A stretch of DNA of 64,000 nt from Bispira polyomma (Eukaryota): contig OZ287754.1 of NCBI GenBank assembly GCA_965649765.1, positions 35,340,001-35,404,000 of the forward strand, written 5' to 3'. Below are positions 17,588 through 62,870 of this stretch, in pieces. Position numbers and translations under genes: made by a program. Positions within the stretch are counted from its first letter, which is position 1, and each line of letters opens with the position of its first letter. The notes under the pieces are model-generated. The model saw nothing but the letters and a program-made list of their open reading frames with translations. It had not been told where the DNA came from and did not search any database.

Positions 17588-17701
17588 GTTTCATGAACAG
17601 TTTATTGGCTGTATTTAGGGCTTCTCCTGGAGCCAAAAACGTTATGGTTACAGATAATATCAAACATGACCTGTATTGGTTCATCAATTTCTTACACAAA
17701 T

Positions 17702-23520: not shown

Positions 23521-23679
23521 AGGCAGCGCCCCAACGCCCCAACGCCGACAATTTCACTTCTGGGGTACCAGTCTGATTGTAATGCTTGAGTGACTGCAGC
23601 CGACTATAAAAGGCCAGCCATATAAATGCTCCTGCCTCTTTAACAATAAACGTTCACAGAACAACAACTTTTTGAAACA
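23521..23679 (+). repeat. Split direct repeat A2
   Basis: Direct copy of 19721-19871 with a small internal duplication; followed by CCCACCCTTCCCTTCCC. Confidence 0.9.
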
Positions 23680-27512: not shown

Positions 27513-29244
27513 ATATTCAAAACTCAACCAACCCTTTTCTTTTTAAGGCCACATCATAGATGCAACGCTGTAGAAGATATTGCGCTGTCTCTTTAGGTGA
27601 TGTTAATGGACTTACATGTAGCCAGAGCGACCCACAACATGTACGCATACAGGATTACATCAGATGCTGGAGTTATTGAGTACTATGAAGATGACAGGCA
27701 GTGGTCGGCTGGGCAGCATATCCTGAGGATTCTACGAGACAATAATGTGGTGAATAGACTTGTTTTGCTATCAAGGTGGTACGGTGGACAGAATCTGGAA
27801 CCCAAGCGATTCCAATGTATCGAAGATGCAGCTAGAGATATGTGCAAGTACTTTTCTAATAAAAACTAACCTATCAAATACTTAGAAAGTAGAAAGTAGA
27901 ATGTTTTTAGACACTATTTGGCACTATCTGAAAAATATAATGCTGTGTTAATATACTAAAAAAATAAATTGTACATTTTTGTCTGTACCTTTCTGAATTT
28001 TTCAGGAAGTGTTAGAAAATGAAATACTTAACATGGAAAATCTGAAAGACCACAGTAAATGTTTGACTAGATGAATGGTAAAAACTCTAATATAATGTGT
28101 GGATAAATGGTCAAAATATTAAAATAATGTTAGGTGTATTTCAAACAATGATTATTAGCCGAAATTCCTTATTTTTACTCCAGGAAATGTTTCCGCCATA
28201 ATACAAATATTTAGATTCTTTCTTTTACTGAAAATTCAAAACCAGGTCCTTCATCCCAACATTCATAATGTTTAAGCCTCTTGTAATATGTTTGGTATGA
28301 AAACAAGGTATCCGTGCCTTAGATGTATATTTCAATTGTATATGGAGTTGATTTATAAATTATTAACTATGTACAGGTACTGAGAATATTGCATTTAAAT
28401 AAATGTATTTTTTGGAAAAGTAGAGAATATCAGTCTATTTTAATATTATTAACCTTTGTTTCTGTGTCATGGCCTTCCTCTACTCAGTGCTTGATTTTGT
28501 CAAAGTTGGTCCGAGTTTTATAACATGGAAAAAACTTTTAACTCTAGCAATAATTCATCAGTATTCTGAAGGACCATGAGTGGCTCTACAATAAACGTGA
28601 TGCACTGTATAAAGACACTCAGAAGAAGAACATGCTGTTGGAGTTGTACTGTACTGCACGGGCAGGGGATTGGATTACAGTGAAGTGATAAAGTAGTTCT
28701 AATCTCAGAGAACTATCTTGACTATCAACCTGAGTGTGAGCAAGTCTGGGCAAGCTGCCGCAGAGTTGACTGAGCGACAGCAGTGGGTGAAGACCAACTT
28801 CAACTTCCTGAAGCTGCATATCAGACGCCAGCTCAACAAGTCTATCGGCTTCAAGCCTATCGCATCAGCTTCCAGGGGGCTGCCCCTCGTGAATCTCCTG
28901 GTGTGTTGTCCCACTCCAATACAAATCTGGCCTCACCAAAGTCTTCAACAGCCTTTGGATCCTCTACCCCTATCCAGGCATTGAGTTGGTTGACAATGGA
29001 CTGCTAGAACATTCCTTCCTGCAGTTCAAGAGGGAGTCCTTCAACCTAGTTACCACACTCCAGGAAATGGCAGGAGGAGGTATATTGCTGACATAATGTT
29101 ACCAATTGACAACACCACCACAACACCACCACTTTATCAACAACCACCACTACCAATCGGTCCTTTTCAGGGCTACCCAAATCATCCAAGAACATGATTG
29201 AAGCTGTTTGTTCAAAAAATGATATAAAAACCCTCATGACAAGA
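27513..29244 (+). repeat. Local duplication, derived copy (of 31125-33221, lacking ~365 bp internally)
   Basis: Near-identical to 31125-33221 from ATATTCAAAACTCAACC to AAAACCCTC.TGACAAGA; lacks ~32179-32543. Confidence 0.92.
27538..27869 (+). pseudogene. IMPACT/YigZ (UPF0029) domain fragment, probably the C-terminus of an L1/Tx1 ORF1
   Basis: F(Q)GH...VARATHNMYAYRI....EYYEDDRQWSAGQHILRILRDNNVVNRLVLLSRWYGGQNLEPKRFQCI matches the ATHNxYAYR / DDGE..AG / SRWYGG..LG..RF motifs. Confidence 0.8.
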
Positions 29245-37425: not shown

Positions 37426-37508
37426 GTAAGCTTATTGCATTGCATTAGATTATCTCTATTGGATTAGATTATCTTCATTTCATTAGATTGTGTAACGTTT
37501 TTTTTCAG
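37426..37508 (+). other. Candidate short 5' intron of the GPCR gene
   Basis: Strong acceptor at 37507-37508. The nearest donor-like G|GTAAGC is at 37426, but the true donor could be farther upstream. Confidence 0.35.
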
Positions 37509-37523
37509 ATAACGAGAGAAAAT

Positions 37524-38765
37524 ATGGCCCTGTCGCTAGAATATCAATGCCTTTTAATAAAGGAGCACTTTGACATGGTTCAAGCTGCATCTGAAGTGGA
37601 TTCAATTGAATATAATCAATCAAGCGGTCCTGAACTTTGGGGAAACCTGACCGATAAAAATAACACCTCTGGAAGCAACTTCACAGAAAGAGATCACTTG
37701 GAGCTCGAAGGAAATCCTGTTTTGGAAGAAGTCAAATACTATTTGCTTGGGGTGGTTCAACCGTTTCTCTGTTGTTTTGGAATCGTTGGGAATATGTTAA
37801 ACATTTTGGTGTTATCCAGGAAGAAGTTCAAAACGTCCCTTGACTGTAGTATGGAAATAGCTGCCATGTGTGGACTCGTAGCCCTAGCCCTTTCGGATAC
37901 ACTCTATTGTATTAGTATGCTCCCAAAGGCATTCCTTAATAAGTCTGTCGTGATTTTTAGCAGTATGAACTTCTATATGGTTTACCAGATGCATGGAACA
38001 GCAATACAAAATATCTTCACGTATATTAGCACATGGCTAACAGTACTCATGGCTACAACAAGGTATATTGCAATTTGTAGGCCTCTGCATGCCAGGTACC
38101 TTGTTGAAACAAGAGCTACCGTTCTAGCAATAATCTCACTAATATTCCTATGCTTTCTGCTTGGTCTACCAGCATTTTGGAAGTATTCGTACATAGCATG
38201 CGCTAAAGAGAGCTTGTATATAATAGATCAAGGATTCTTTGTGAAGAAAAAGATGTTTAAAAATATCTTTACATGTTTATGGTGTGTGATTGGATTCTTC
38301 ATTCCTATGACCATACTGGTGTACTGTAACATCAATTTGATCGGGGCATTAAGGGAATCAATGCGCATGCGCAAGCACTACAGTGTAAGCAACAAGGCGG
38401 CTTCTCCTGGGAGCCATATCACTCCAACATTAGTTGCAGTTATATGTCAGTTTCTTTTGCTCATGACCCCCTCTGAGGTGATGAATTTCTACTACTTTGC
38501 AGTAGGCCGTGATACCGCTGAAGCCTTCACATTTGCTATTGTTGTCACCAATATTCTACAGACATTAAACTTTAGTCTTAATTTTATATTGTATTGCATC
38601 GTCAATAGCCGCTTTCGAAGCACACTTATACACCTTGTGTACTGCAGGAAAACATCGAGGGAATCTCACTACCACATGCGGATGTCTGCTTCTGGTAGGT
38701 CGTCTGGTGTAAGCCACACAAGACAATCTCTATTAACTACCAGTAACAAAGATACTGCAGTGTAG
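37524..38765 (+). CDS. Rhodopsin-class (class A) GPCR, FMRFamide/peptide-receptor-like, 413 aa, single coding exon
   Basis: Intact ORF with seven hydrophobic segments: TM1 FGIVGNMLNILVL, TM2 LALSD, TM3 STWLTVLMATTRYIAICRPL, TM5 FFIPMTILVYCN, TM7 NFSLNFILYC..N.RFR. N-terminal sequons NQS/NLT/NNT/NFT. ATG 37524 follows the acceptor TTTTTTTCAG (AG 37507-37508). Confidence 0.93.
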   Translation: MALSLEYQCLLIKEHFDMVQAASEVDSIEYNQSSGPELWGNLTDKNNTSGSNFTERDHLELEGNPVLEEVKYYLLGVVQPFLCCFGIVGNMLNILVLSRKKFKTSLDCSMEIAAMCGLVALALSDTLYCISMLPKAFLNKSVVIFSSMNFYMVYQMHGTAIQNIFTYISTWLTVLMATTRYIAICRPLHARYLVETRATVLAIISLIFLCFLLGLPAFWKYSYIACAKESLYIIDQGFFVKKKMFKNIFTCLWCVIGFFIPMTILVYCNINLIGALRESMRMRKHYSVSNKAASPGSHITPTLVAVICQFLLLMTPSEVMNFYYFAVGRDTAEAFTFAIVVTNILQTLNFSLNFILYCIVNSRFRSTLIHLVYCRKTSRESHYHMRMSASGRSSGVSHTRQSLLTTSNKDTAV

Positions 38766-43050: not shown

Positions 43051-44015
43051 TATCTCCGGAGTTATCTTTAGAATCAGGAGCTTGGTAATGACCTATCCTT
43101 ATGACATTTCTGAGTTATCTTTACCATCAGGGAATTTCTAAAAACCTATCCTTAACATTTGACAGGATAACTCGTGAGAAGTGGATGATAACTTGTAATG
43201 CTCCCGACCAATCAGGACGGATAGGACGATTAATCCATTTGAAAATGGAAAACTTTACTCGCGATTTAGATGCTGATTGGAAAGATTAATTATAAGGTAA
43301 CAATAACTCATTAGCAGCTTACGTTTGACATTGATTGGGCCCACCTATTGACCTATTGGCCTTAAGTCATTTAATTGCAGAAGTTTTCTAACATGTTAGT
43401 TAATTGGCACGAGTGACCACGAGTGTCCCGATTGACCCCAATAAGTCTGGACAACTCCTTGAGTGTCCCGATTAGCTTCTGATTGTATAATCGGGATGGT
43501 TGGGAGCTACTATCAGGATAGTGGAACAGCCCCATAAATGAAAACCTGCTGGCAATTAAACTGTTAGAGGTAGTCTGTAAGTGGTCGCAAATGGTTTTAC
43601 AAATGATGTATGAGAGATTCTTCTTGTCGGAAGCACCTGCATCTGAGTGGGAACAACTACTCAAACAAAGTACCATTCCCTATTACCAACTAGTTGATAG
43701 TCAGGGAAATTGGAAGGGTTTGCACATCATGACCCAACAGGGGTCTGATAGTTCAGTTCCTAAAACCCCCCTTCTTATTTAACACTACCTTAATTAGTTT
43801 AGGTATCTTCTCCTCTCTTCTCTCTATCCCTTTGTGGCACCCAATTAGGGGCCCTCTCTGCTTTGACTTATTTATCCCCCTTTCCACCATATTGAATTAA
43901 GTGATTCAACAGTAAACATCAAGAAATTTTAAATTTGGAAATACTTGGAAATAAACTCTTATTTTACTTTTAAGTGCTTTTATATATTTTATAACCTGTT
44001 TATATTGTTGGAATT

Positions 44016-45159
44016 ATGGGGAGGACAAGGAAAACCCCTTTGAGTGTGCCACTTAAGGATAAAAAACGTGCTCCTAGTAAGAAGGTGACAACAAAGACAG
44101 GTACTTCTGCTCGTGTTTCGGATCCGTTAACCATGAATTTAGAGGGTCTACTAACAGATACAACGACCCCCCCAACCTAATCCGGCTGGCAGTAATCAAG
44201 CCAATCTTGGGGATGTGATGGCTGTGCTTCAGAGGTTAGAAACGGCTAATTCAGATATTACCAGATGTCTCGACAGGGTCGAGTCGCGTGCATGTAGTTC
44301 TACCTCTCTCGGTTCACCTTCCGCCTCCAGAAACGGGACGATTTAGGATCAACCTCAGCCGGGCGAGTTCGTCCTCCCGCTGCATCCGAGAGACCACACT
44401 CGAGACCCTGCTTATCACCAGCCCAGGGCATCTCACCATGACTACCAGAGAGATGGCATTATACCTAAAGTAGATGTTTTAAGATCACTCCCAGAGGTAA
44501 CTGCAGCGGTGAATTACCGCCTTGCTACCTATGACGCCCAGCTACGCACAGAACTTACCCAAGGTAAGCCACTACTGCCACATAAGTCGGGACGTTATAA
44601 TACCACCGACATCGCTAATGCGGACCCACAATTCAGGTGGCCAAATGAGGGTTGCAGTGGGGTAGCTAGTAAAAAGAGACCGGCGTTTGACGACCTGACA
44701 CTTCCCCAATGGGCAGCCGGCCAATTATTTAATGTTTCACAAGTCCAGGACCAAACTTTACTGAGGCAAATGCTTGACCAGGTGATTAACTCATTAAAGG
44801 ACGCTTCTTCTCTCCCATGGCCAGCAGTTAGGGCAGCATGGGCTGCCAACATGCAGGAGGTGGAGGAGGGGCGCCTCCATTGGAGGGATGCCACTCAATG
44901 GGCACTAACGTGAATGAGTGTTTCCCAGCTGACGGTTCTGAACAGCCAGCATACAAACACAGGAACGGCTACTCAGAAGGGCAAATTATTGTGTAAATTT
45001 TACAACCTCGGCAAGTGTCATCAGGAAGGGGATCACGGGCAGTACCGACATATTTGTTCCTACTGCCACAGAGTCCTTAACACGGATGCTTCCCACCCGA
45101 CGGCAAAATGTGAGAAAAACAACTCCAAAACAAATCAAAACCAGGGAAACAAAGCCTAG
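44016..45159 (+). pseudogene. gag-like ORF1
   Basis: MGRTRKTP...; KSGRYN..RWPNEG..FDDLTLPQWAAGQL; C-terminal CKFYNLGKC..H..HICSYC..HP..C. Frameshifts and a TGA at 44911. Confidence 0.8.
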
Positions 45160-45356
45160 GGGTACAGTCAACAACTAACTGAACAAACGATTAGAAAGTG
45201 CGGGTATTCTGACAGTAGTATAGATGATGTAATTTGTTGTTATGGTAGTGATGAGCTTAAACATCAGAAAGTAAACAGAACTGTAACTGGTAATGACTAT
45301 ATAAGTTATGTGGTAATAATAACAGTAATATAGTAAAATTTCAGACAGAGTGTGTT

Positions 45357-47913
45357 TTGAAGCCCAACTTAAATGAGGGCATTATTGACTATAATGAAGA
45401 AGTACATAGTGACAGTATTTATCAGAATTTCAGTAACCAGATGTCACAATCTTCTGTAAAAGACATTAATCCTGAAATAATTACTAATGTTTATGATGTA
45501 GATTGTAATGACATAACTAACAGAGACTTTAATGGGGTTACCAAGGGTAACTACGAACTATGTAATGTCAGTGATGTGGACCATGATCAGGGTCATAGTG
45601 GCATAAGTTCTTTGGCTACTGTGTCTACTTGTAACTGGGTGGATCAAGGCATCCACAACTTAAATAACATTGTCTATCTAAATGTGCATGATTATCCCAT
45701 GGCTTCAGGGTTCTGTTACCAAAATTTCGGTTCTGATGGTTCTTACCAATTCAGTGCCTGCGGGCAAGTCCCTAATTCTTACTTGGAGATTATAACAACC
45801 ATAGAGATAATGGTCTATATTGATCCTACCTACTGGGTTTGTAACCAGTACACTCCAAAACAAAGGCAGTATGCCAATAATGTACATTACCATTATAACA
45901 GAGACCTGGAATGCCATGGCACTTATGGCTGTGATTATACACAGTATATTGGTAAACTTATTGATCACATAATTGATAGAGATGATTCCACTGGGGACAA
46001 TAATAATTCACCCATGCTGGAACCTGCCAGTGAACCTGACAATGCTAGAATCACGTCCATCCGTTCATCTGACAAACAAGCTGGCTGGTCGGGCGAACAG
46101 GACAGCTAACATTTTACCAATTTGATTACACAGAGTAAAAGGCATACCTCCTTTATTGATAACAAGACCACTGATATTCACGATAATACCAAAGCACTTG
46201 GCTTCATTAAGTTATCACATGTGGACTTTGAATTCACTGGTCCAGATAAGGAACCTATGACTATCACTACTGTTGACAATATGCTAGAAATAGCCGAAAT
46301 TATTAGAGACACAGGCGTTCCCAATTACAGGGCTGCCAGAATTCCTTTAAGTTATGGCCTCAATATTGAAGCCTGGGAAAACATACTTACAGGTCACCAT
46401 GACAAAATCCTGTTACAGTATCTTAAATTCGGATTTCCTCTGTCTCTGGAAAATCCTCAGCTACTGCATAACAACAATCTGAACAATCATCACTCTGCAA
46501 CACAATACCCTCAAGAGGTGTTTAAGTATCTTGAAAAGGAAAAGTCTAAGGGCACCATTTTGGGCCCAGTTGCTCAAATAAGAGATACCCATTACCATGC
46601 TTCTCCCTTGTTGACTAGGCCAAAAGACATTGATAAGCGTAGGATTATTCTCAATTTATCTTGTCCTCATGACCTTTCAGTTAACAGTCAGGTCTCCAGA
46701 GATACCTTTGACAGTGTTAAGTTTGCACTTAGGTTCCCCACCATTGATCACATCACTGAGGCTACTAGAAATACCAATGACCCAGTAATGTTTAAAACGG
46801 ATGTCTCCAGGGCCTTCAGGAACCTTAGGGTTGACCCGGTTGATGCTGTGAAGCTAGGTATAAATTGGGACTGTAAATCATATGTTGACGCTGCCGTGGC
46901 ATTTGGCTGGGCCCACGGCAGCGCATCTTTTCAGCGTTGTTCTGACATTATAGCTGAGGGATCAAGGTTTTACACTGTTCTGTTACATTGATGATTATGC
47001 ATGTATTTGCAATAGAGAGAAAGCTAGTAAGGGTTATGACCTGCTTCATGACATACTTCTGAAGCTTGGCCTTCCCATCAACCAAAAAAAATCAGTCTCC
47101 CCCAGTACTTTCACAACCTTCTTAGGTATAGACATAGACATTCAGGAGGGCATTAACAGCATTAACCAAGACAAAATTGATTCTATTTACAAGGAGCTTC
47201 AGCTCATTAGTCAGAAATCCTGGTTATCACGAACAAAATATCAATCTATGCTAGGGAAGCTCCTATATGTGCATAAGTGTGTTTGCCCTGCCAGAACTTT
47301 TATAAACAGACTATTAGCTGTATTTAGGGATAACCCTCAAGCCAAACGATTCAAGGTTACACACAATATAAGACAAGATATTGCTTGGTTCTTATCTTTT
47401 CTTCCCCTGTATAACAGCATTACATACATTTCACCCAAGGACATTCAACATATGCAAGAATTCCACTTAGATGCTTGTCTGACAGGTTTCGGCAGCATTT
47501 GGAATAAGGAAGTATATGCTAGCCCTATATACAACATTTACAACAGAACCTTGGACATCACACAGTTAGAAATGTTAAACATTATTATAGCATTAAGGTT
47601 ATGGGGTAAAAACTGGGCCCACCAGAGAGTCACAGTATGGTGTGACAACCTGGCAGTGGTGTTAGTTGTTGACACTGGTAAAACTAGGGATTCTTTTCTT
47701 GCCACATGTATCAGAAACATATAGCTTTTAGTTTCCACCTTCTACATAACATTAAACATAAAACATATTAGGGGTCAGAAAAACATTAAGGCGGATGCTT
47801 TATCCTGCATTCACTCTGCCAATCCTCCAAATATAGGAATAATGAGAGAGCTAGACAACTATCACTGGAGACACATACCTATAGAATTCTTTAACTTAAA
47901 TTATATCATATAA
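45357..47913 (+). pseudogene. pol: long N-terminal extension + RT + RNase H
   Basis: PNYRAARIP..FGFPL; ASPLLTRPK..RRIILNLS; FKTDVSRAFRNL; FGWAHGS; CYIDDY; FHLDACLTG..ITQLEMLN..WCDNLAVV..HIRG..N..ADALS. Several stops and frameshifts. Confidence 0.9.
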
Positions 47914-47919
47914 TTACAG

Positions 47920-48884
47920 GTGCAGCTCCATCAACTTTACCTCTGGCTCTGGCAGCAGTCCAGCGACAAGATTCTGCCCTGAGGCCATCTACAACCAGTG
48001 CATACATCTCACAGTTCAAGACTTATTTAGGGTTTTTATATTATTCAGGCCTGCAGCAGGTTTCAGTACATTCTATCCTCTCATTTCTGGAATATTTAAC
48101 CCAGAACAACATTTCCCCTAGGGTAATGAACAATTATGTCACTGCCCTCAAGTTTATGTTCTCTAAATACAATCTAAACACGCACGTGTTAACCCACAAC
48201 TCTGTGTCAATGTTCCTCAGGAGCTTGACTCAAACTTTAAGCCTCAGAAAAAGGGGATTTTGACCTCCTCATGCTTCAAAACATTTCAAGAACATGTTCA
48301 ATTCTCAATGACCCTATTCTGTACAGGGCCATATTTCTAGTCTCATTCTTCGGCTTCTTAAGGATGTCAAACATCGCCCCCATTCCAGGAGTAGATTTGA
48401 TCCCTCGAGACACTTTCTAAGGCAAGACTTAGTGTTTGGCCCACCAGGGGCACATCTAATCCTTAAGTGGGCTAAAAACATGCAGAATAAGACAGATACT
48501 CATGTAGTTCAATTACCTATTCTCCAGAACAAGTCACTTTGCTCTGTTTCTGCTCTCACGAAACTTCAGTCTAGGGACCTGTCTCCCACTGCTCCCTTAT
48601 TTGTAGCCTCTTCCCCTCCATACCATGTAATTATTGACTCTCATATCAGATCAGCACTCAAGATTGTGTTACAACATCTTGGGGTTGACCATACCTACCA
48701 CAGCTTCCATACCTTCCGTAGGTCAGGGGCCTCACTGGCATTTAATAATAATGTGTCATTGCAGCACATAATGTCCCACGGCTTATGGCGCAGCTCTGCA
48801 ATCTGGGCCTATCTTCAACACTCTTCCTCACAAGCTGCAGTCATCCCTACCACTTTGGCCTCCATCATTCCCTCTACCCTCTAG
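47920..48884 (+). pseudogene. Tyrosine recombinase (no in-frame ATG before its N-terminal domain)
   Basis: ALRPSTTSAY; GFLRMSNI (catalytic R); FHTFRRSGAS (HxxR); HGLWRSSAIWAYL (W, Y). Small frameshifts. Confidence 0.9.
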
Positions 48885-49095
48885 TTTGGGTTTGGGTATA
48901 TTTTAAAATTTTACAAGTTAAATTTTAAACTACTTTTTACCTACCTGTATATAGTACTAACCTGTATAGAATAAACTTCTCCAAACAAAACAGTATTCAC
49001 ATTTGACCTACCACTTATCTCAAGGTCAACTCATTCATACTCACTTGGGAACTGTGAGCCAGGTGAAGGCATACTTTCTGGAAACAGACGTCAAT

Positions 49096-49440: not shown

Positions 49441-51317
49441 GTGATAAGTGTCACTCACAATTAATAAGTAAGTAAAGAAGTTGGTAAATAATTTAAAATG
49501 TTAATAAATCACTAAATAATTTAATAGTGGGTAAATAAGTTATTAAATATTTAAAATGTAACAGAATACTGTAAAGAATAAATGGGTATTACATAACAGT
49601 TGTAACTATTTTAAAGATGTAAAATAAATATCACGTGGTATTATAAATGATGTTACAATATAATAAATATTTTTTTCGTGTTGCCTACTTTCAGATTCCC
49701 AGATCTGTATGATGACGACACACAAATATACTTTGTTTTCATATTTTTATTTTTTTTTCTTCAATGTGCACAATATTATATACAATTAATTCATTTTCAA
49801 GTATACATACAATTTATGATTTTACCAAATTCCATGTATTACATTTACATAATCTATTTTAGTGAATCCATTCCGGTGTCTCTCTGGAACAATTACGGAT
49901 TTATAAACAATTACATCATTATTCTTTTAAAAAGCTTCTCTAACATATAAATTAAAAAAAAAAAAAAAACACTTTTAGATATATTTTCAGATACCCTTGG
50001 GTTTATGAGTAAATGTTCGGTTCTGCTGACTTATTCTGAAAGAAAAAAACATTCCCATTTTTTTCATACTTGCTCAAATAGAATATATAAGTCACTGCAA
50101 AACATGCATGACTATTCAGGCGCAAAAATATATGACCTTACAGTATTTTGGAAAGCTATGGCAACTTGGTCTGAGGCATTATGATCTTTTGTGATATATT
50201 TCCGTACATATTCTGATGTCCGTGTGCCATGGCTTTAAATTTCTTGTAGTGGAACATGACTATATTATGAAATGTAATGGGGGAATACGTCAAGCTTAAT
50301 CTTGATAGAATTTGCCTTAAGGTATGCCTTATTTTTGAATCGGTAAGAGGAACCCATCCATTTGGGGTTTGGAATTGAAAAAGAGGGGAATTATCTAGTC
50401 CCGGTAAGATAGCTAGAATGTTTTTTATAGCTACTAATGAACATAATAGTGATTTAAGAATATGTGGTACTTTTTGGATCCTGATTAAATTTCTGTTTTG
50501 TAGGGTTTTTGACTATTTAATTATTATTTGCAAACCATCTGAGGGTTAGTGGAACCAGGTTTGAAATTCTTCAGAGAGAAAAGAAGGCCAACAGGTAGGT
50601 CACTTTGAATACCTGGCCTATGTACATTGTATCACAGGTTTGCACTATCTGAGTAAAGAGTGAAATGTCAATGACTTTATTGATCCTGGCTCTAAATGGT
50701 CTCTGTAAGGTCAGAGCTTTTTTAAAGTACTTGATACGCGGATTTGTGAATGCATTTACATTAATTCCATGTAAACTAAGCTTTGCTTTAAAAGCAGCCA
50801 AGTAATGGCAATTGAGGGCTGTGATACTTTCCTAGCTACCAGTACCTGGTGAAAAGAGAGTAACAGTATAGGTGAAATTTGTGTGATGTTGATGCTTACA
50901 AATGTGGTATAAGCTACAAAGACCCTAAACATGCTTTGATAAACCTGCTGAGTGGCTGGCCTAAAAACCAGGTGGGCTGTGTGAAGCTTGGCCTGCTAAT
51001 TGCAACACCAGGGTGGATACATCTGAAATACATTAGATACTCTAATCAATAAATAGCATCTCATCCGACACCTCTACCCATTGTTGTTCAGGAATTAATT
51101 GCTGCAACTTTACTTCTGGTTTGGAAACTCTGTGCCACCCGGGTAGCAAATCCATTTAGTTTCCCCAATATATGAACAGGTCTTATATTTATGTCTGCCT
51201 TTGCTACTTCCACGAATATGTCACATGCAATGGCTGCCAGCGTTAGATCTCTAGTTTTGCCTGAGTTTAGGATTGTTACAAGGACCTGGTTGTCACCAGT
51301 TTTTTACCTTGGCATAT

Positions 51318-51729
51318 CAGTCCTATGGGAAAGAAGCCAATAAGTGAAAAGCAGTATATAAAACATATTTGGAGTTTATTTTAAAACATTCCTTCTTTAC
51401 CCTTTTTGTTACAACATTAACAACATGTTAGCATTACTATACATCACTGTCTGTTAACACAACTACTTTTACACATTACTTTTGTTAGGATTATTAACAG
51501 CTTTTATTGTGACATTAATATTAATCTACATGTTAAAACTCTACTACTGACACCTATAATACAATATAGCTGGGAAGCGTTTAGCTCATGGAGCATTCTG
51601 GCTTACATCTTTTATAATTACTAATCAGGCATGCCATTTACCTACGGTGTTAAGCTATCATTAACCATAGTTGAGGAATGTCTGGTATACTAAAACTTAA
51701 GTATCGAAATTTTAAACAATTGTAAAGGG
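51318..51729 (-). repeat. Split direct repeat B2
   Basis: Direct copy of 52151-52563. Confidence 0.95.
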
Positions 51730-51771
51730 ATAAATTAAAAGAACTTTAATCATGGGTAAGTGGAGGGTGGG

Positions 51772-52150
51772 TTTTCCAATATGGCGCTCAGCCCTCTAAA
51801 CTTCCAACTGACTTTGAACCCCAAGTCTGGAGGTATTTGTGCACATAGATTTCAGCAAGCCCCCATGTGCTTTAACAACTCACAGCCTCAGTATCAGAAG
51901 GCCTAGTTGTATGCAACAAATGGGTAGACAGCCACCATATGATTTAATATCTCAAGCTTGCAGACACCTTGTGGTCTAGTTATGTGCAGTACATACAGGA
52001 CAACCTAGGGGTGACCTTCCACTTTAACTATTGAAACCTAAAACTAATATTGATACCAAAGTAGCAAGGCCACTTGTGTTTAATTTTATGTTTTTTAAGC
52101 TTTTCCTAAAACTGACACAGTTTGCTACTTAAATTCCGCAACACCTATTA
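51772..52150 (-). repeat. Split direct repeat A2
   Basis: Direct copy of 58239-58618. Confidence 0.95.
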
Positions 52151-52563
52151 CAGTCCTATGGGAAAGAAGCCAATAAGTGAAAAGCAGTATATAAAACATA
52201 TTTGGAGTTTATTTTAAAACATTCATTCGTTACCCATTTTGTTACAACATTAACAACATGTTAGCATTACTATACATCACTGTCTGTTAGCACAACTACT
52301 TTGACACATTACTTTTGTTAGGATTATTAACTGCTTTTATTATGACATTAATATTAATCTACATGTTAAAACTCTACTACTGACACCTATAATACAATAT
52401 AGCTGGGAAGCGTTTAGCTCATGGAGCATTCTGGCTTACATCTTTTATAATTACTAATCAGGCATGCCATTTACCTACGGTGTTAAGCTATCATTAACCA
52501 TAGTTGAGGAATGTCTGGGGATACTAAAACTTAAGTATCGAAATTTTAAACAATTGTAAAGGG
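52151..52563 (-). repeat. Split direct repeat B1
   Basis: Direct copy of 51318-51729; abuts A2 at the junction GGACTG|TAATAGG (minus strand). Confidence 0.95.
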
Positions 52564-52590
52564 CCAAACCCCAAATAAGTTGTAGAAATT

Positions 52591-53561
52591 TTAAGACAGT
52601 AATTTTTGAAAGGTAGTGGGTACTACACTAGAAGCTTTTGGAGTTGAATTTAGGTATGTCCACACCGCATCACTCTTCCAATTTCCATGGGTTTTAATAT
52701 TTTGCAAATTGACATTGCTGTCAAAAGCAAGAGAAGCACCGCTTCTACGAAATGCATGAAATCCAAAAGCTTTGGGAGAAAGTCCAATCCTAGTAATAGC
52801 CAGTTTAAGAAAAGATCTAGCTTTAAAGGCTGTAAGAGGTACTATACCAGCTTTAGTTTAATTAAAAATAGAGGAGACTCTTCCTGAGCAGGAAATTTTT
52901 TTACACATTTGTCGAATTGCTTTTACCAGGCAGATCAATTTGTCGGATAATAAAGGCAATTGTACTATATGGTATTGATCTGATATGTGCATATTTTTTG
53001 CACACGTCATTACAATATGTATACCTGGATTACCCCATATGAGATCAGCCCTAGTGGGAAATTATGTCCTATCAAATTCCTTTACTGAATTTGGTACTAA
53101 GGAAGCAAGCCTAAAAAAGCCAAAATAAGCACTTAGGAAGATAGCTACATACGTTTCTGCATTTAATAAACCTTGTATTGCTTTAATCATTTTTTTCAGT
53201 TGGTTTACGATTAGGACACTCTTTACCTTAAGTCTGATCGAGGCATTGATCTTAATTGATTTTATTAGCATTTGCACTTTTCTAGAAATAAGACCATTTT
53301 TAGGCCAATCAAAAAGCCCAAAAAATTGGGAGAGAGTTGACATGTGGTTGCTGATAGACACAGCTCTGAGTCCTTGTTGAATGAGGTACTCTACGAAGCA
53401 GACGAGAGTCCGTGGGCAGTGGGGAACTGTCAGCTGTAAGAAGGTCATGAAGGCCAGAAATAAGTTAAACGTCGCATCATAGGATTTCCTGGTGCGAGGT
53501 CTCAAGGCCGTAGGTATGCGCTCCATAGCTTGGTGTTCCAATTTCTCAGCCATTGATTTGC
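52591..53561 (-). pseudogene. Tyrosine recombinase (premature stop at ~53062)
   Basis: ALRPRTRKSY; YFGFFRLASLVP; GFHAFRRSGASLAF; HGNWKSDAVWTYL. Confidence 0.9.
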
Positions 53562-53765
53562 CTAGAAACATATTACAAGCAACGCAGTACTATGCTCTAG
53601 CATGTCATATGACATGTATTTTGGGCTTTAATGAGACTATAAATCTTCCACATTCTTATTCTGGTCTATGTTAGAGGAATCTTTGTAATCTATAAATGCA
53701 TATACATATACTTATGCTGTGATCTTTGAGAAATTGTTACATAATTATATTTCATTATAATGACA

Positions 53766-55110
53766 CTATATATAAAAATTTGGCATTAACATGTCACCAT
53801 GTGTAGGTAACCAAGTACATTGATTCTTTAGGTAATTAACTGTTGAAATATTGGCATCTTGATAAACATGCCACTTAGACAAAATGTCTGCATAGACATT
53901 ATTGACTCCTGGTATATGTAGCACCTGCAACTCAATATTGTGCGCAGCTACATAATACCAAGTTGTACGAAGGCAGGCCATAAGCCATGGATCTTTAGCC
54001 TTTTTTGAGGTAAATACCTGGACCACAGCAAAGTTGTCACACCACAGTGTAACTTTAGTATTCTGCCATTCATGAGCCCATAGCTTGAGAGCCAATAAAA
54101 TATTGGCTGCCTCAAAGTGGACATTAGATCTATAGTTTTTAACTGACATGAGGATATCTGCACTATACACTTGTCCATTAAAATAACCACCCACTTTCTC
54201 CAATAAAGCATCTACATATACTACATGATTAATGGTATTTTTAGTATGTATTCCACTACCCCATTAAAAATCTCCAGAAATTGGTTAAACCATTGGATAT
54301 CTTTAAAAAACATTTCCGGTAGTTTAATACTTCCTCTCATAGGAGCAGTACGTAAAACCTGTAAAATACGATTAATGAAGATACGTGCTGGTCGCACACA
54401 TCGATGTATATAAAGGAGCTTTCCAGTCAGCCTCTGCAATTGGTTTCTAGTAGCAGTGGTTTTACTAAGCCAATTTCTACATAACTCTTTTACTTCTTTA
54501 ATTTTCTGACTAGGAATAGTTAACGTACCTGTACTGGCATTGATATTTATACCCAAACAATTAATTTCAAGAGCTGGAGATTCCAGCTTTTTACTATTAA
54601 CAGGAAGGCTTAATTCTGTGAGTAGATTTTTTGCTGATAAGAATTGTGAGTTAGCTACGTGGGGAGGAGCGACCCCAATAAAATCATCTAAATAATTCAT
54701 CATCCAGACGTTACGTTGACGCAACATTGACGTTACAGCGTCAGTACATAACTGGCAAGCGGTTGCGCCCGTACGAAAACCGAAGGGTAACCCTATATCG
54801 ATATAAGTATTATTTTGCCATTGCAGGCCCAATACAGGATAGTCGTATGGATCAATTCTTAAAACTCTAAAAGCTCTCTGAAGATCAATTTTATATAATA
54901 ACACTGTAGGACCATACATTCGAATTTTTTCAACCACTTGGTCAATAGTAGGATATTTTAAAGTGAAAGGTATATTATCATATACATCTATGGGGACACA
55001 ACTATTTACACCCTGGCCTAAAGGCCATGACAGGTCCACTATTACCCTGGTACCTCCATCTGGCTTAGGCCTAGCCATCAGTGGAGAAAAGTGTATATTT
55101 TCGAAAGGTT
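53766..55110 (-). pseudogene. RT + RNase H
   Basis: SPLMARPKPDGGTRVIVDLSWP; YKIDLQRAFR; LPFGFRTG; NYLDDF; RNase H HFEAANIL..WCDNFAVV..HIPGVNNVYADILS. Frameshift at ~54220. Confidence 0.92.
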
Positions 55111-57107
55111 TGGAAGAGGAGCATGAGGGAGAAACCCAAAATCACGAGGTTCAGTCACCATCTCCCTTTTTGTTTTAATAAACCAGCTGGTAGCTTTTAC
55201 TTTAAACAAATCATAACTATTTTCTTTAGTGGCATTGTTAAAAGTGTAATTTTGTACGACTAATTTAATCATATTTGATTTTTCATCAAAATGTTTGTAA
55301 CTTGTATCTTCTATATAAGAACCAACTGTGTTAGAATGGTGGTTACTACCAACCTTCATTGCCATGCTGTCATGCATATATGAAGTATGTCCGAATTCAT
55401 ATATAATACTACTATCTTCTGTATAAGTAGCATGCATGTGAATCATGGACTGTAATTGAAAATATGCCAAACATTCGAAAGTTTCATAAAAGCTGGGATA
55501 TTGACAATTAAAATCATCAGCAGTGTTCAAACTGGGACTAAAATGAGCGCAGAGTACATCATTTGTAATATCAAATAAAATCAAATCATAAGTAATGAGT
55601 TCATTCTGCCTTAACCCGTTAATAGTAAAGACTTTATTAATATAGTCATCAGAATTGTAATGTCCCGTATTAGACCTTCTGGTCTCATTAATATCACCAT
55701 GTTGTTCATAAAAGTTGTTATAACTATTACTAAGAACTAACTCTGTATAAAAAGAACCATTCAGTTCTGTGTAATTGCAAAGTAAAGTAGTTGAAAGTTC
55801 ACTAGGGCTGAGGCCATTATAGTACTCCATTAAGGAAGTATTATTAACTTCTTGTACTGAATCCATACTATCACCGTGTATCTTGTTTATATGTTCACGT
55901 TATGATTAGCCAACGTGTGTACATTATGGACTTTTCTATTAAGGTGACTGCCATTCTGAATGTGAACATCATGATCACACGTGTTTTTACACATAGCATC
56001 CTGCCATATTTTAAATGCACTGTTGTTGTAGTATGTCAGTACACTATGGTGTTCCATTTTTGTTTCACATCTACCACTGTTTATATTCTTCTCTGAACAC
56101 CTGCTGTCAAAACAAGTTTTACCACCACCCCATAAGTCCTTTACCCCTTGTGTTATTTCAAGAGACGATTCAAGTGTTGAACAAGGGTCAAGGTACTTAT
56201 TATTGTTGCAGTATCTAGAACTTACCTGGCAGCAATTTAGTGCAACATGTTCTAATGTACACGTAATTAGATAACTGGACCTATGGACCAACGAGGACAG
56301 GGTGTTCAGGTCATTAGAATCTACAGTTATATTGGCCATACTAGTGTTATTGTTATTTACAGTGACAGATACGTTACTAGCTTTAACAAAAGTATAACTA
56401 TTTCTGTCACTTGTACTAACTATGTGACTAGTCACACCATAAACACTATTGCTAGAATTATTCTCTTGTGACATTAATAAATTAACATCGCTCCCATGAA
56501 CTCTGTTATAAGAGCTCGACACATTTGTATTCATTACTAAGTTGTCACTAAGTCTATCAACATTTATTTTAGTACTATTATTAGATTCTATTTTTTCAGC
56601 TAGTACTTTGCACCGGGAAGACATTTTTCCTGTATCATGACTTTTGTACATAAACACAGTAGCCAATAGGTTTAATTGGTTTCCCATATTCGGGTCTTTG
56701 TTATAACTGATACCATGATCACGTTTTTTAACACGAGCACCTTGTTTTGGGCTAAACTCGCTGGTCAATGGGTTCAAGGTGGTTTCATAATTTCCAACAC
56801 CTTCATTCAATCTATTTTTAGGCATATTATTACATGATTTGGTATAAACATACATACTAGTAGAACGAGTATCATGTTGTAACCATTTACTATCAGTATT
56901 ACAAATTTCCTGTCTAAAAATTTTTGCACGTTGATTTAATTTAGTTTTATTACAAGTACCTTCCATATTATGATTTATCTTTACAATAACTGTGTCGTTG
57001 TAATTTAGGCCAAGGTTATTATAATATTTCCCGCCGTTGTTAACTTTAGACACATTACAACTAATAGGGTTAAACTCGCTGCTCAGTTTTCTGTCCCTTA
57101 CTATCAT
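55110..57107 (-). pseudogene. Long Asn/Ser/Thr-rich N-terminal extension of pol (ORFs of 406 and 262 aa)
   Basis: Two long ORFs between gag and RT separated by a frameshift; no catalytic domain recognised; PAM2-like motifs (see findings). Confidence 0.65.
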
Positions 57108-58119
57108 TTTTCATTCGCACACATTTGCAAGCGGGGTGATCATGCTTTTTGCCACGTGTCTCTTTGTAGCAGTAAGTGCAGTAGTGCTCATATTTGAAAC
57201 CTCTGGATACATGGTCCTTGTCTAGCTTACAGGTACCCTTATTAAACAAGGAGCAGACACTACTTTCTGTATTCCTGTTTTCACTACTACCTGTACCACC
57301 GTTATAGTGGACCCTTTGGGCATTTCTAGCTCTGATTTTTTCTATCAGTTCGATTTTGTCCCATGTGACCTGCCCTTTTTCGATTTCTTGAAGTACTGCA
57401 GCATGCGCTTTCTTAGCTGCTTCTAATCCCAACTCGACAGCGTCTTGCATTAAGCTAACATGGTAATTAAGCATAACCTGCCTTTTCTCAAGATCACATT
57501 CCTCTAACGCGCAACAAAGCAACCCCTGTGCCCATTGTATGGGAGACATTTCGTCGTATGTCGATTGTTTGTTGGTATGAGCGACGGTGCAATAATATTG
57601 GGGCCAGGTGACCTGGACTTTTACTTTATGTACACCCACTCTATACCGGCCAGATTTTAAAGTGGAAGTATTTTTACCTTTATAGTCAAGACATGAAGCT
57701 CCTTCATAATCACGCAATCTCTTCTGAACTTCGGCTTGTATACGGGAGTCACTTTTGAGGACTTCCAAAAAGGGTAGCTTTGGAACTGCACTCTCTGGAA
57801 CAGCCGTTTTCTGACCCATAGCCTTTGGTGAACCTTGGGCTGACGGAAGCACAGAAATTTCATTTAAACTCACTCTGTCCTCTTGTTTTTTCAACCGTTC
57901 GTCCTGATTATTTAATTGCACACCCATACCCTTCACAACCATTAATAGTTCAGTTAATTTGTCCGACATGGACTTGCTGTGCGTATTTGTTATCTCGGCT
58001 TCTTCACTCTCAACATTATTAGTAACAATATCAGTATCTGGTACATTATTTTCACTTCTTTTAACAGTACTTTTATTTGTACTTTTACTGTTCTTGCTAA
58101 CTCCCGGCTTAAGCCCCAT
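57070..58119 (-). CDS. gag-like ORF1 (open)
   Basis: Uninterrupted ORF of ~349 aa from ATG 58119; coiled-coil-like segment, LKSGRYR, TYDEMSPIQWAQG, C-terminal CSLFNKGTC..H..HYCTYC..HP..C. Confidence 0.8.
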   Translation of the reverse strand: MGLKPGVSKNSKSTNKSTVKRSENNVPDTDIVTNNVESEEAEITNTHSKSMSDKLTELLMVVKGMGVQLNNQDERLKKQEDRVSLNEISVLPSAQGSPKAMGQKTAVPESAVPKLPFLEVLKSDSRIQAEVQKRLRDYEGASCLDYKGKNTSTLKSGRYRVGVHKVKVQVTWPQYYCTVAHTNKQSTYDEMSPIQWAQGLLCCALEECDLEKRQVMLNYHVSLMQDAVELGLEAAKKAHAAVLQEIEKGQVTWDKIELIEKIRARNAQRVHYNGGTGSSENRNTESSVCSLFNKGTCKLDKDHVSRGFKYEHYCTYCYKETRGKKHDHPACKCVRMKNDSKGQKTEQRV

Positions 58120-58238
58120 TTTGTAAAACACTTGACTCTGGAAGGACTTTTGCCGGCTTGACTGTTAGGAATTTAAAAGGTAATTCTAAGTCTGACTAAA
58201 ATTGAATTTTCTATGTAGTCAAGCAGACAGGAGTCCAA

Positions 58239-58618
58239 TTTTCCAATATGGCGCTCAGCCCTCTAAACTTCCAACTGACTTTGAACCCCAAGTCTGGAGG
58301 TATTTATGCACATAGATTTCAGCAAGCCCCCATGTGCTTTAACAACTCACAGCCTCAGCATCAGAAGGCCTAGTTGTATGCAACAAATGGGTAGACAGCC
58401 ACCATGTGATTTAATATCTCAAGCTTTGCAGACACCTTGTGGTCTAGTTATGTGCAGTACATACAAGCCAATCTAGGGGTGACCTTCCACTTTAACCATT
58501 GAAACCTAAAACTAATATTGATACCAAAGTAGCAAGACCACTTGTGTTTAATTTTATGTTTTTTAAGCTTTCCCTAAGACTGACACGGTTTGCTACTTAA
58601 ATTCTGCAACACCTATTA
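58239..58618 (-). repeat. Split direct repeat A1 (5' terminus TAATAGGTGT)
   Basis: Direct copy of 51772-52150. Confidence 0.95.
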
Positions 58619-61600
58619 ATCTTTCCATAATCGAAGAGCTACTAGGATATTCAACATTTCTAGGTGAGCAATATTCATTTCCAGGTGGTGAAGGGAAAGC
58701 ACATTTGTGTAGATCACATTGGGCCTGTCAAGCAGGCATCTAATTCGATGTGATCCATCCATGGACTATGACCAAAGAATACTTTTCAATTAAATCATTC
58801 TGTGAACTTTGTGAACCAATTCAGATCTTGAAAGAAATGCAGTTCTAGGTCAATACGTTTTGCATCCGGAGCGTTACGTAGAACGTTAAGCATTCTGTTC
58901 AGAAAGACACTTGCTATTTGAACGCATTTTGATATGTACAACAATGAGCCTAACAGTGATTGTAGGTCTTGTTTAGAGCATTGCCATATCCCGACCGACT
59001 AGTACAAAGTTTAATTGTTTGAGCCAGTTTCTCTGGAGGTACCTCTATTGAAGTTTTCTGTATCAATGAGTACTCCTAAACAAGTTACTCTGGTACTAGA
59101 AGCAACTAACTTTTTGGCACTAATGGCAAATCCCAATTCTAGTACTAACTTATATAAAAATTCATATGTGTCATGAACGTCCGGTGTTTTTTTCATATCC
59201 AAATGATGTTGTCAATATAATTTACAACTTTACAGCATCTAACCTGCATGACATAACGTACGGCGTCACTTAGGCGTTGAAATATGGCACTTCCGTTACT
59301 ATAGCCAAATGGGAGACACGTGTCAACATAATACTTGTCTAATTGGAGGTCTAATAAATCATAATCTGCAGGTATTTTTGTTTTTGATGTCATCAATTGT
59401 TAGCAACATTGGCAAAAACTCAGTACCTAAATATTTGTTCTGATGTATCGCTGCATTCACTGCTGCTCATGCGGAAAGCTTAAATCAATGATGATGCTCA
59501 TGCGGAAAGCTTAAATCAATGATGATGGGACCCCCGGCTTTTCTCTAGTCATGAATGCGGAAAGCCCTTCTATGGGAAGTTCATCAAATGGGCCAAGAAT
59601 AGCCTGTCATCATCTGTGAACTCACATGCCGGGTTTTGCTCTTTATGGTTTAATTCGCATTTATCTATCAAAGTCATAGTAGAAAGCCATAGTGTATCAA
59701 GTATGGCAACTGGGCGTCCCAGTAAATATGTAGTAGTTCTTGCCAGCGTTCATATTTGAGTTGTGATTGAACTACAAATGGTTTATTCATGAAATTATAT
59801 TTGTTACTGTTTTTGATTTCATTCTGTAACTAGAACGTTGATAAGTTGTGGTCATTTGCTTGATCAGTTATGTGGTTTTTCAACTCCCCCAGGGGAATAC
59901 ATCCGAATTTACCATGGGTTTGGCTATTCCATTTTGTGGTTCATTATTTTTAGAAAGGGCAACTACTTCTGTGTGTGGAGCTTTTGTAAACACCTTTTTT
60001 CAGTTTACAAACCCGCCTTTTGCTAGTGGTGACACATTCGTCACTCTCAGGGGGGCTTATTCATTGAGTGTTAGGAGGGGGGTCAAAGCGGTTTCTGATA
60101 ATGACTTCATTGTTCTGTCTAATTGGTGGTTCGCACCTAGCTTTTATATACATTGGTCGCCCCTAATGGGCTTTCATCACATTCAACTAATTGTGTAGTA
60201 ATATGTACAACATAAACATTCTTGGGGTGACAACTGGGAACTCTGCGTTTGACTTTTGCTACATTTTTCTCCCCTTCTGTGTGCTAGCCTGTATTAGGCT
60301 AGCCACTTGAGCTTTTCGTTTTACAACTTGTGCATATGATTTCTTAACAAACCTGGCCCAGTCTGATCTCCAGTTGTCACTTCTGTCAATAGGAGCAATA
60401 TGGGAATTAAATTAAAAGTTGCCCTGCTCTCAGGGTCCCTTTTCCTATCAGTGTTATTCAGTGTTAATCCTTTTGGTTGCACTGCCGTTTTGCAGTGCTT
60501 TATTCGTTTTTGCACTGTTCGCCTTTCTCCTTCTACAATCTTTTTCAGGATGGGGGAAGTTTTTACCCAGAGCAGAGCAAGTTGCACAAACGTGTATACA
60601 ATTTACCAGTGGTTTCATGGTCCTCTTTTTGAGGACAAGTTCCCTTTTGGAAGTATCTGCAAGGCATGCCTTTGTTATTACTAATTTTGACCCTGTGAAT
60701 TTTGAAAATCTGATCTTCTTTGAGATGATCTCGTCGAATCCTGTCTATTTTTTGAATCTCTAACCAGGTTACTTTACCCTCCTCCATTTTACATAGGAGA
60801 ACAGCATGGCTGCCTTTTGCAGCAGTCCAATTGAAATCAGGGAAGTCTTCTCTTACTTCCCTTATAATTGCACTAAAGCCAGATACCCACTGGGCCATGG
60901 CAAGTTTATCATAAGATATACGATTTTTACTTGACCCCAAAGAATGAAATTTTGGGGCAATGGTACTTGCTGTCTAAGCCAAACTATTCCTGTTCCCCCC
61001 TTTGAAACTTGAAATTACCTGTCTCATTAGCCTGGTCTCCACTGCTCTCTGGAGCTGGTCTGACTCCTTCAGCGTCAGGAGTAAGGGAATCACTAGATCA
61101 TCTGTGTTAGTAGGCCATCTGGTCCGCTGTCTGCCAATATCCCTGGACTGTGTGAGGTTACGAGGTGTCATTCTACAAATAATATATGAGAACCATGCTT
61201 GGATATATGCGGATATATGGCAATATTATTTAAATTTAATTAGTAAAATCACTAGAATTATATATAAAATGAAATACGGCCCTCAAATGTTTGGTCACAC
61301 AACAAAGCCAGAGCGCATATATCAAAGCATTTGATTATTAGGAAGACTCCAGCCGGATCGTTGATGCCTTGTGATGATCATCCAGTCGATTCTGTGCCAT
61401 CTTTAGTTACAATACATGACATAAATGATGTAAAATAAAACACAATTATATAAATATTAAAAATGGCGTACTGTCTTGTTGACTTTAGTTTAATAAGTGA
61501 ACCCCTGTTTGGCGGGAGTCTTTTCTTAATTGGGTTCATTAGCACCAATAGAATTTCGAGGTCATTGAGACAAAAACAGTTTTACAAAATGCCGTGTTAG

Positions 61601-61639: not shown

Positions 61640-62870
61640 ACAACACAACACACACACATACCAAAACACACAGTACATTTTACTACACAAAGTTATTAAA
61701 ATATTGTGTCACATAGACAATAGTAAACAAATTAAAACACAGGAACAAGAACATATAGAAACTGACCAAAATTACACACATACATACACACATAGGGACA
61801 TACATACGGACATACATACACATATGGAAATAAAGTAGGTCAAAAATTGTAACTACAGAGACAGAAGACAGACATACACAAGACGTATTATAACTACACA
61901 GACATCCAGCACTGAAGAAGTAAACAGTGAACAAAATCCCACCTTTGACATACAACCACATAAGGAAATTTACAACAGACAGTAGGGTTTTACAGCCAGT
62001 GTTTTTTCAAACTTTCATCATATAGGCCCTGACAGACAATAAGTGGACATTGACACTTATGATAAATGAATCAAAATAGTAAATATAATCAAAGACACAT
62101 GAAAGCCAAATTACAAGTGTGCCAGGATACCCATAGAACCAGGAATGAACATTATTAACAGGCAGAAACATTTAATTTAATACCTTGACTGATTGAACAC
62201 TTGCAATTTGGGTTTCCCATTTCGCTCTGTGACAGGGACAGACTTAATGTTAAACAAATAAACTATCATTCTGCAAAAATATTTTCTTGAGACATTGACA
62301 AATATTTTATCACTGAACGAAGCACACTTGTTAGCCCTATACATTCTCCACAACATCCAGACTTCCACTGCTCGCCATTATTGACCAGGCCAAAATGACT
62401 AACAATTGACCCAATAATGACTCAAATACAACACATAGGCGACAAGGCTATGCTTGAGAAGGTGGACATTGCACACGCATTCCGAAATATTCTCGTCGAT
62501 TCATATGACTGTTTTAAACTCGGATATGACTGGAAAGGAAAATATTTTATTGATAAAAGCCTTAAATTCCGATTAACGCACGGCACTGCCGTCTTTATGA
62601 AACTAAGATAATCTCGGCTTATAATTTCTTAGAGAAATTATTAAACAACTTAGGTCTACCCATCAACCAGGGTAAACTAATGTCGCCTAGTAAACAGTAA
62701 CATGTATGGGCATTGTTATAGACATTGACCAAGAAACTTTAAGTTTTATAGAAACCTAAACTACTAGCAATTTATAAAACGTGTTTAAGCTTTGAAAATT
62801 TACAAAAAGTAAAATTAATATTCAATAGCAGTCATTACTTGGTAAATTACTTTACACTATGTACATTGCA
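61640..62870 (+). mobile_element. Decayed DIRS/Ngaro-group pol (same family type as 4640-6700)
   Basis: AC-rich extension, then PNYKCARIPIEPGMN..W, LGFPF, EKVDIAHAFRNILVDSYD..YFIDKSLKFRLTHGTAVFM, SLLGKLL. Confidence 0.8.

Follow-up and report, generated by a model that had tools for sequence, protein, structure and literature searches.

Several groups of retroelements rely on splicing for expression of a 3′ gene or for setting protein ratios, with the unspliced RNA serving as genome: retroviral env and foamy-virus pol are expressed from subgenomic spliced RNAs, and Ty1/copia elements make a spliced gag RNA. The donors in these systems lie upstream of gag or at its start, or the RNA is cut to gag alone, and we know of no case among them in which a Gag coiled coil is fused to a full integration enzyme. 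Here we describe a conserved pair of splice-site motifs, with the donor in the middle of gag, in Ngaro-type elements (order DIRS) that crowd a 64-kb stretch of the Bispira polyomma genome (contig OZ287754.1, positions 35,340,001 to 35,404,000; the whole stretch of 64,000 nucleotides is referred to as the window). The motifs would join the N-terminal part of Gag, Gag(N), to the tyrosine recombinase (YR), the last gene of the element.

The nearest analogue is the SD′/P50 system of murine leukemia virus (MLV). PMC10496198 describes P50 as the N-terminal part of Gag joined to the final 116 residues of the DDE integrase through a donor, SD′, inside gag; P50 is packaged, and the SD′ RNA is retro-copied. 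The two arrangements share a donor within gag, an acceptor late in the element, and an in-frame junction of the Gag N-terminal part to an integration protein. They differ in that P50 is accessory, the integrase proper of MLV coming from Gag-Pol, whereas in the Ngaro elements it is the spliced RNA that would supply the entire recombinase, and in that no retro-copy of a spliced RNA was seen here. As the MLV and Ngaro lineages are unrelated, the likeness would represent convergence. The initial annotation of this locus had likened the proposed splice to that of retroviral env; MLV SD′/P50, with its donor inside gag and its in-frame fusion, is a better match than env.

In DIRS-order elements the integration enzyme is encoded in a separate 3′ open reading frame (ORF), and the main texts examined are silent on its translation or its route to the cDNA. 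Those of PMC8547959, PMC9210276, PMC3783388, and PMC4157794 present the Ngaro superfamily with the gene order gag, reverse transcriptase (RT)–RNase H (RH), YR and with A1-[ORFs]-B1A2B2 repeats, as found here, and treat YR as a free-standing third ORF, whereas here a spliced fusion is predicted; a word search of these four main texts finds no splicing or intron of the elements. The YR frame varies relative to RT-RH here, as the main text of PMC3783388 states for fungal Ngaro. A word search likewise finds no description of spliced YR expression in the main texts of PMC9341512, PMC7192593, PMC6681497, PMC5633606, and 10.64898/2026.02.25.703748, and the search terms are absent from the available text of PMC3266345. 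The literature searched thus holds no description of spliced YR expression in Ngaro or DIRS elements; the founding reviews lie outside its scope, so a prior mention is possible.

Splice-Site Motifs in the Window

The window is a dense cluster of decayed Ngaro-type elements, with five gag/RT-RH/YR elements or remnants recognizable by translation, Pfam, and tblastn. In element 3 (plus strand), an ATG at 44016 opens the gag 5′ part (44016–44563), which was located by tblastn with the gag of a relative and in a six-frame view and constitutes the predicted coding part of exon 1; it is decayed, with a stop and a frameshift near 44180–44350. The donor AAG/GTAAGC (44561–44569; the slash marks the predicted exon–intron border) falls after base 1 of a Gly codon, and the same site is present in all family members read. 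The predicted intron of 3356 nt (44564–47919) holds the gag 3′ part (helical core and zinc fingers; stop at 45157–45159) and pol (RT and RNase H; stop at 47911–47913) and ends in the acceptor ...TAATTACAG/G (47900–47920), 6 nt beyond the pol stop. The YR that follows (47920–48884; Pfam PF02899/PF13495 and tblastn) consists of a SAM-like core-binding domain and a catalytic domain, with a single frameshift near 48260. Its frame is closed upstream by a TAA at 47892, and the first in-frame ATG lies 69 codons past the 47919 junction, as the initial annotation had indicated.

Equivalent sites are found in the other elements. On the minus strand, element 4 carries the donor AAG/GTAAAA (57672–57680, first intron base 57677) and the acceptor TGTTTCTAG/G (53561–53580, last intron base 53562), both in phase 1, with 147 gag codons ahead of the donor. 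In element 2 the donor is at 20416, the acceptor at 22679, and YR starts at 22680; element 5 has a donor at 61018 and an acceptor at 51023, and element 1 retains an acceptor at 3315. The four donors and five acceptors on which the initial annotation built its proposal read as it had quoted them, its intron lengths of 3356, 2264, and 4116 nt are correct, and the Gag N-terminal part of the 51318–58618 copy (element 4) is indeed 147 aa. Its assignment of phase 1 is readable at both ends for 44564/47919, 57677/53562, and 20416/22679, whereas at 51023, as at 3315, the phase is only deduced: these two acceptors stand 60 and 58 nt away from the RPxT motif, not 59 or 62, an off-register spacing that implies an indel between acceptor and motif. 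GTAA is present at all four donors, as had been stated; the Ser codon at 20416, however, is no evidence that GTAA is kept despite residue change, as its two closest relatives, L101 and L102, read CAA GGT AAA at this place, and the AA/GT of element 2, where relatives have AG/GT, is most likely a product of decay.

As a measure of chance, each strand of the window has 1.1 AGGTA and 3.5 TTNYAG sites per kb. Such motifs being common, single sites mean little, and the signal is fixation across families at a homologous place, a pattern that over the whole genome goes well past chance. Because all copies in the window are decayed, this test had to rest on relatives. The 1.035-Gb assembly contains thousands of YR candidates, of which 150 were scored per query, and 120 stretches of 10 kb around matches were hand-picked, in most cases for a YR frame that was long and open; the picking was blind to the splice sites, and the sample is not random. 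Single-linkage clustering at 80% YR nucleotide identity yielded 30 families with a median between-family identity of 46%. Of the 120 loci, 99 have the KS[GQ] motif that served as gag anchor, with one spurious match dropped and 20 loci lacking the anchor; six gag copies disrupted between helix and motif by a frameshift or deletion were excluded before counting, which left 93 copies in 22 families (the GTAA site is still present in five of the six and lost in one). A YR frame was found in 117 loci; three were removed because of a gap or mis-anchoring, and 114 were kept.

A Donor-Like Motif Fixed at Synonymous Positions of gag

The donor Gly codon is GGT in all 93 readable copies and all 22 families, compared with a background GGT share of 0.35, in agreement with the proposal that GGT is fixed over GGN at this codon. 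Two other conserved Gly columns vary, with GGT in 7/17 and 7/21 (Fisher p = 3e-5 and 1.5e-6 versus the donor), and all 11 other conserved fourfold columns show all four third bases. The codon before the donor Gly has A as its third base in 21 of 22 families, where 9.8 are expected, whether it encodes Q, K, S, P, R, or T, and the codon after it has A as its first base in 22 of 22, for K, M, N, and T alike. AG/GTA is the spliceosomal 5′ consensus. Protein constraint cannot fix third bases and so does not explain the fixed GGT and xxA, and AG/GTA is held at synonymous positions of gag.

This column is the strongest donor-like column of gag (9 + 4 of 13, in two adjacent columns); gag has no other of comparable conservation, and none in RT-RH or YR exceeds 42%. 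Phase 1 is kept while the distance to a protein landmark moves by whole codons (−8, −17, −20, and −23). In all clades the donor is placed mid-gag, behind a coiled coil and a helix, and not near the gag start.

The Acceptor Motif and the Start of YR

A phase-1 AG lies 59 or 62 nt ahead of the RPxT arginine in 109 of 114 copies, with one further doubtful copy; in the exceptions, the AG is lost in one and shifted by an indel in three. The phase-1 YAG/G that the initial annotation had read in the window is conserved in 30 of 30 families. These acceptors are of the TTNYAG type, with T at −6 in 30/30, T at −5 in 29/30, and a pyrimidine at −3 in 29/30; the pattern, present in 29 of 30, reaches a mean of 4.8 of 30 and a best of 17 in control windows of equal size. 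AG is depleted in the 17 nt from −20 to −4 (2 seen versus 13.4 expected). The features of a spliceosomal GT-AG intron are thus present at both ends, 5′ AG/GTRAG and 3′ a T-rich tract, YAG/G, and an AG-free zone. The phase is kept even though the distance to the motif shifts from −50 to −62. The best other acceptor-like columns (10/14 in RT-RH and 17/25 in YR) are in other phases; we read them as forced by conserved residues, a reading not checked column by column. In several large families the YR frame has a stop 3–10 codons upstream of the acceptor, and where it is closed three codons upstream, protein constraint cannot explain the T at −6 and −5.

The SAM-like core-binding domain occupies codons 17–83 of YR. 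In 14 of 30 families the first in-frame ATG is found only 31–82 codons past the junction, so that a start there would lose part or nearly all of this domain; in two more families it is at codon 19. The motifs, their phase, and their fixation across families are accompanied by a missing YR start in about half of the families, and an ATG close to YR is not a consistent property of these elements, 14 other families having one nearby.

Elements from Other Assemblies

Among 14 metagenome loci with 31–46% YR identity, 11 have a readable YR start, and all 11 show TTNYAG/G in phase 1, 50–62 nt ahead of the motif. These YRs sit in separate deep branches of a quick tree built from our own and metagenome rows only. 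At the homologous linker, four of six outside gags carry G/GTAA in phase 1, with T rather than A at −2 in three. A first metagenome scan with one protein as query gave no matches.

The translation of the acceptor is also visible in protein databases, in 18 of 20 close YR homologues with enough N-terminus (16 of 17 without three mis-anchored ones). For distant representatives, the pattern I/F/V/L-S/V/T/P/A-G/D/E is seen in 20 of 32, compared with 41 of 529 control windows (7.8%). The lengths of database homologues cluster at ~284 aa (cut at the first ATG) or ~329 aa. The look-alikes fall in eukaryote clusters of the Atlas, with few taxon records.

Junctions Around pol

The pol stop lies 6–301 nt upstream of YR, in varying frames (14 elements, some stops possibly premature). 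With gap and frame both variable, no single frameshift or reinitiation rule fits, whereas the phase of donor and acceptor is constant. No shared acceptor was found near the pol starts of 15 elements scanned. Gag stops were compared in L005–L098, L115, L117, and the window. In element-4-like clades, a GTT-stop is followed by pol in the +1 frame (e.g., window 57070, minus strand); in the element-3 clade, the TAG has a G after it and pol keeps to the frame of gag (window stop 45157); in the element-2 clade, A AAA AAC precedes the stop and a −1 frame is likely. The gag-pol junctions point to production of pol by recoding, not by splicing. In four metagenome elements, pol is in frame past a TGA.

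The pol N-terminal extension is 300–700 aa long and has many N, S, C, and H residues; it cannot be aligned from one clade to another and has no Pfam match, yet it stays open in unbroken copies (window 45160–46200 and 55080–57110; L029, L061, L079, and L128). L139 and L140 (G000:C3) have one internal deletion of RT-RH in common, which suggests that they represent either a non-autonomous subfamily or a segmental duplication.

The Predicted Gag(N)-YR Protein

One gag was modeled with AlphaFold2 (33 rows; mean predicted local distance difference test score (pLDDT) 74, predicted template modeling score 0.41). In this model, a long helix (residues 27–65) and a helix pair (85–111) are followed by a linker (110–125, pLDDT <50) and the helical core; the gag C-terminus has zinc-finger-like motifs with invariant Cys/His. 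The donor Gly is residue 115, within the low-pLDDT linker and after the helix 92–111. Modeled as three copies, the N-terminal part forms a coiled coil (0.67, best control 0.00), with runs agreeing in at least 45% of contacts and a partner pLDDT of 56–57; in microbes, the mark used is attained by 21 of 30 solved homodimers and by none of 23 monomers, and in animals by 7 of 16, a calibration on two copies applied to a three-copy job. R-h-x-x-h-E is a trimer motif of coiled coils; it is exact in four element-3-clade rows and looser in 10 of the other 12. Fold searches with the Gag model return nothing at E ≤ 0.001 and just generic coiled coils at Z ≤ 5, and no named gag family was matched in Pfam. 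Some gag N-termini (L076, L079, L098, L115, L125, L128, and L132) carry C-x2-C-x3-H-x2-P-x-G-x2-C, a motif absent in others; it is likely a zinc knuckle and would stay in the fusion.

From these features we propose that the unspliced RNA is translated into Gag and, by recoding at the gag stop, Gag-Pol and serves as the template for reverse transcription, and that a subgenomic spliced mRNA drops 3.0–4.5 kb (the gag core, the zinc fingers, and all of pol). This mRNA would encode 114–197 aa of Gag joined to a YR of ~325 aa, a predicted fusion of 439–523 aa (summed codons of copies with full-length gag starts). The retained coiled coil is predicted to let the fusion co-assemble with Gag and so to deliver the recombinase to the particle or ribonucleoprotein where the circular cDNA forms, and loss of the core and zinc fingers would leave RNA binding to full Gag. 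Such a particle-loading role of the coiled coil is a prediction that we somewhat favor. The wider view, an old and broad Ngaro radiation in which YR is normally made only as spliced Gag(N)-YR and a shared trimer-type coiled coil loads the Gag particle in place of the Gag-Pol route that long terminal repeat (LTR) elements use for integrase, is about evenly balanced in our judgment.

Evidence Against and Alternative Explanations

Several observations weigh against a spliced fusion or against its proposed role. The +5/+6 positions of the donor are weak in some families (GTAAAA, GTACGG, and GTACTG), and two of the six outside gags have no donor at the homologous place; these two carry CAG/GTGAG in phase 1 at the KSG glycine, a post hoc reading. 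Many database YR homologues are called with a start three codons before the acceptor. The families are related and so not fully independent, the control columns sharing the same tree. The coiled-coil result may reflect likeness to solved coiled coils, and the three-copy model speaks to self-association, not to co-assembly with full Gag. No spliced retro-copy was found in four acceptor-spanning and one donor-spanning DNA searches, in which 40 of 144, 40 of 103, 31 of 31, 40 of 253, and 40 of 75 matches were scored, nor among six long-frame or truncated candidates that were opened; two partial matches were rejected as RT deletions away from the splice sites. A Gag-YR fusion protein is absent among the 120 listed of 216 YR matches (longest 344 aa), in 19 gag matches, and in the 150 top-ranked of 16,281 representatives, which reach 380 aa at most and match no gag profile, and a database search with the Gag N-terminal part gave no matches. 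Three sequencing runs of unknown kind cover window 43900–48900 evenly, in a DNA-like and thus uninformative manner, and the junction 44563^47920 is absent from the 15 joints listed of 56. The database entries resemble ORFs called from genomic sequence, and the fusion-protein blank accordingly says little; most of these blanks, whether of RNA joints, retro-copies, or database fusions, have little power, and the absence of retro-copies does differ from MLV SD′.

The splice might occur and YR nevertheless be translated mostly from its own ATG, or the fusion be cut, the Gag part supplying a start codon and no targeting. An ATG lies upstream of the acceptor in nine families and at most eight codons after it in five, which makes translation from an own start possible in these 14 and counts against a fusion there; in three families of the element-2 clade the ATG follows the acceptor immediately. 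The N-terminal part is, moreover, weakly conserved in sequence and variable in length. Against this stand the 14 families without such an ATG, the donor kept behind coiled coil and helix in all clades, and the lack of any protease domain found in pol, and we consider the explanation unlikely. It is also improbable, and more so, that both sites are real but unpaired, the acceptor using another donor, in the 5′ leader or in a trans-spliced leader, and the gag site being a U1-binding or other RNA signal. Nucleotides fixed within coding sequence can be the mark of whatever RNA signal overlaps it, and no donor–acceptor junction was seen; however, nine 5′ leaders share no donor, two of them having no donor-like site at all, the mid-gag column is the one conserved donor column in gag, RT-RH, and YR, both sites hold phase 1 while landmark distances shift by whole codons, and a leader lacking an ATG would still leave the 14 ATG-less families with no start.

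Splicing might finally be dispensed with altogether, YR being reached from pol by frameshift, readthrough, or reinitiation and the motifs being by-products of protein conservation and T-rich spacers. The YR frame does overlap the pol end by a few codons in the element-3 clade, pol and YR share one frame across a single stop in one family, and the same elements appear to recode at the gag stop. Yet the frame and gap between pol and YR differ among families, some without overlap, and the third bases at the donor and the T at −6/−5 go beyond protein constraint, which makes this explanation very improbable. A spliced Gag(N)-YR fusion, joined from the mid-gag donor to the pre-YR acceptor with both in phase 1, is to our minds the likely product of these elements; the tests of donor GGT, YAG/G phase, and ATG placement support the interpretation first advanced in the initial annotation.

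Classification and Other Features of the Window

Gag, RT–RNase H, and YR lie on one strand with YR last; RVT_1, RNase H-like, Phage_int_SAM, and Phage_integrase are matched in Pfam, and the R-K-HxxR-H/W-Y residues are present in the alignment. The repeats of element 4 are direct and split, in the order A1-[ORFs]-B1-A2-B2, the internal ones lying beyond YR (pairs 96.6% and 97.8% identical). Both pairs are found at 97–100% in 6 of 21 self-compared relatives and a single pair in three more, the rest being decayed or cut off by the 10-kb stretch. No methyltransferase (MT) domain follows RNase H (methylase families, E ≤ 0.01, 6/6 pol proteins), and in the three own-genome pols that gave one, the RNase H-like match lies no more than ~35 aa from the pol end. 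A DIRS1-like identity was rejected, the terminal repeats being direct, not inverted, and an MT match being absent. The elements are assigned to Ngaro by structure (repeats, domain order, no methylase) and not by a reference tree. One PAT derivative without MT is reported in the main text of PMC4157794, and an MT-less PAT derivative is formally conceivable as their identity. Xenopus Ngaro has SGNH, whereas the pol and YR frames scanned here have no SGNH match, the 3′ tails lying outside the scan.

Element 4 comprises repeat A1 (58239–58618, minus strand; 97% to 51772–52150), gag (57070–58119), pol with its long variable N-terminal part, RT, and RNase H (53766–57110), YR with one internal stop (52591–53561), and the repeats B1 (52563–52151), A2 (52150–51772), and B2 (51729–51318), together 51318–52563; its pol is split over four frames and crosses the gag stop in the +1 frame. 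This 7.3-kb insertion (51318–58618) sits within the RNase H region of the decayed element 5 (50133–61334, minus strand; gag near 61334–60508, YR 51022–50133), so that donor 61018 and acceptor 51023 are one element's pair, with an intron of 2695 nt once the insertion is removed. Element 2 (19724–23679, plus strand; repeat 19724–19871/23532–23679, gag 19970–20983) is decayed, and its pol is ~0.9 kb shorter than in relatives. Element 1 is a plus-strand remnant (2454–4045) with RT/RNase H at 2454–3110 and YR remains to 4045. Further decayed Ngaro-type gag, RT, and YR fragments occupy 5150–6520, 12120–12310, 14340–19350, and 61980–62690, and tandem or adjoining copies also occur at L017, L044, L098, L118, L129, and L132. 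The nesting of element 4 in element 5 and these neighboring copies hint at insertion into or beside kin. Elsewhere in the window, a lone long ORF (37449–38765, plus strand) encodes a rhodopsin-type G protein-coupled receptor (7tm_1, 7TM_GPCR_Srw) and is a probable host gene, and there are a 40-nt tandem array and a ~1.7-kb duplication, 96–98% identical (26687–27625, 27513–29244/31125–33221).

Implications

The paired sites are a strongly conserved, real feature and would represent a new expression variant in a known element family. A conserved splice would offer a concrete answer to how YR, the last gene, gets translated. If the prediction is true, current annotation leaves the real N-terminus off the YR proteins of these elements, which would matter for expressing them or for using them as site-specific recombinases, and the Ngaro elements, which lie outside the LTR class, would provide a convergent example of a retroelement that controls stoichiometry by splicing.

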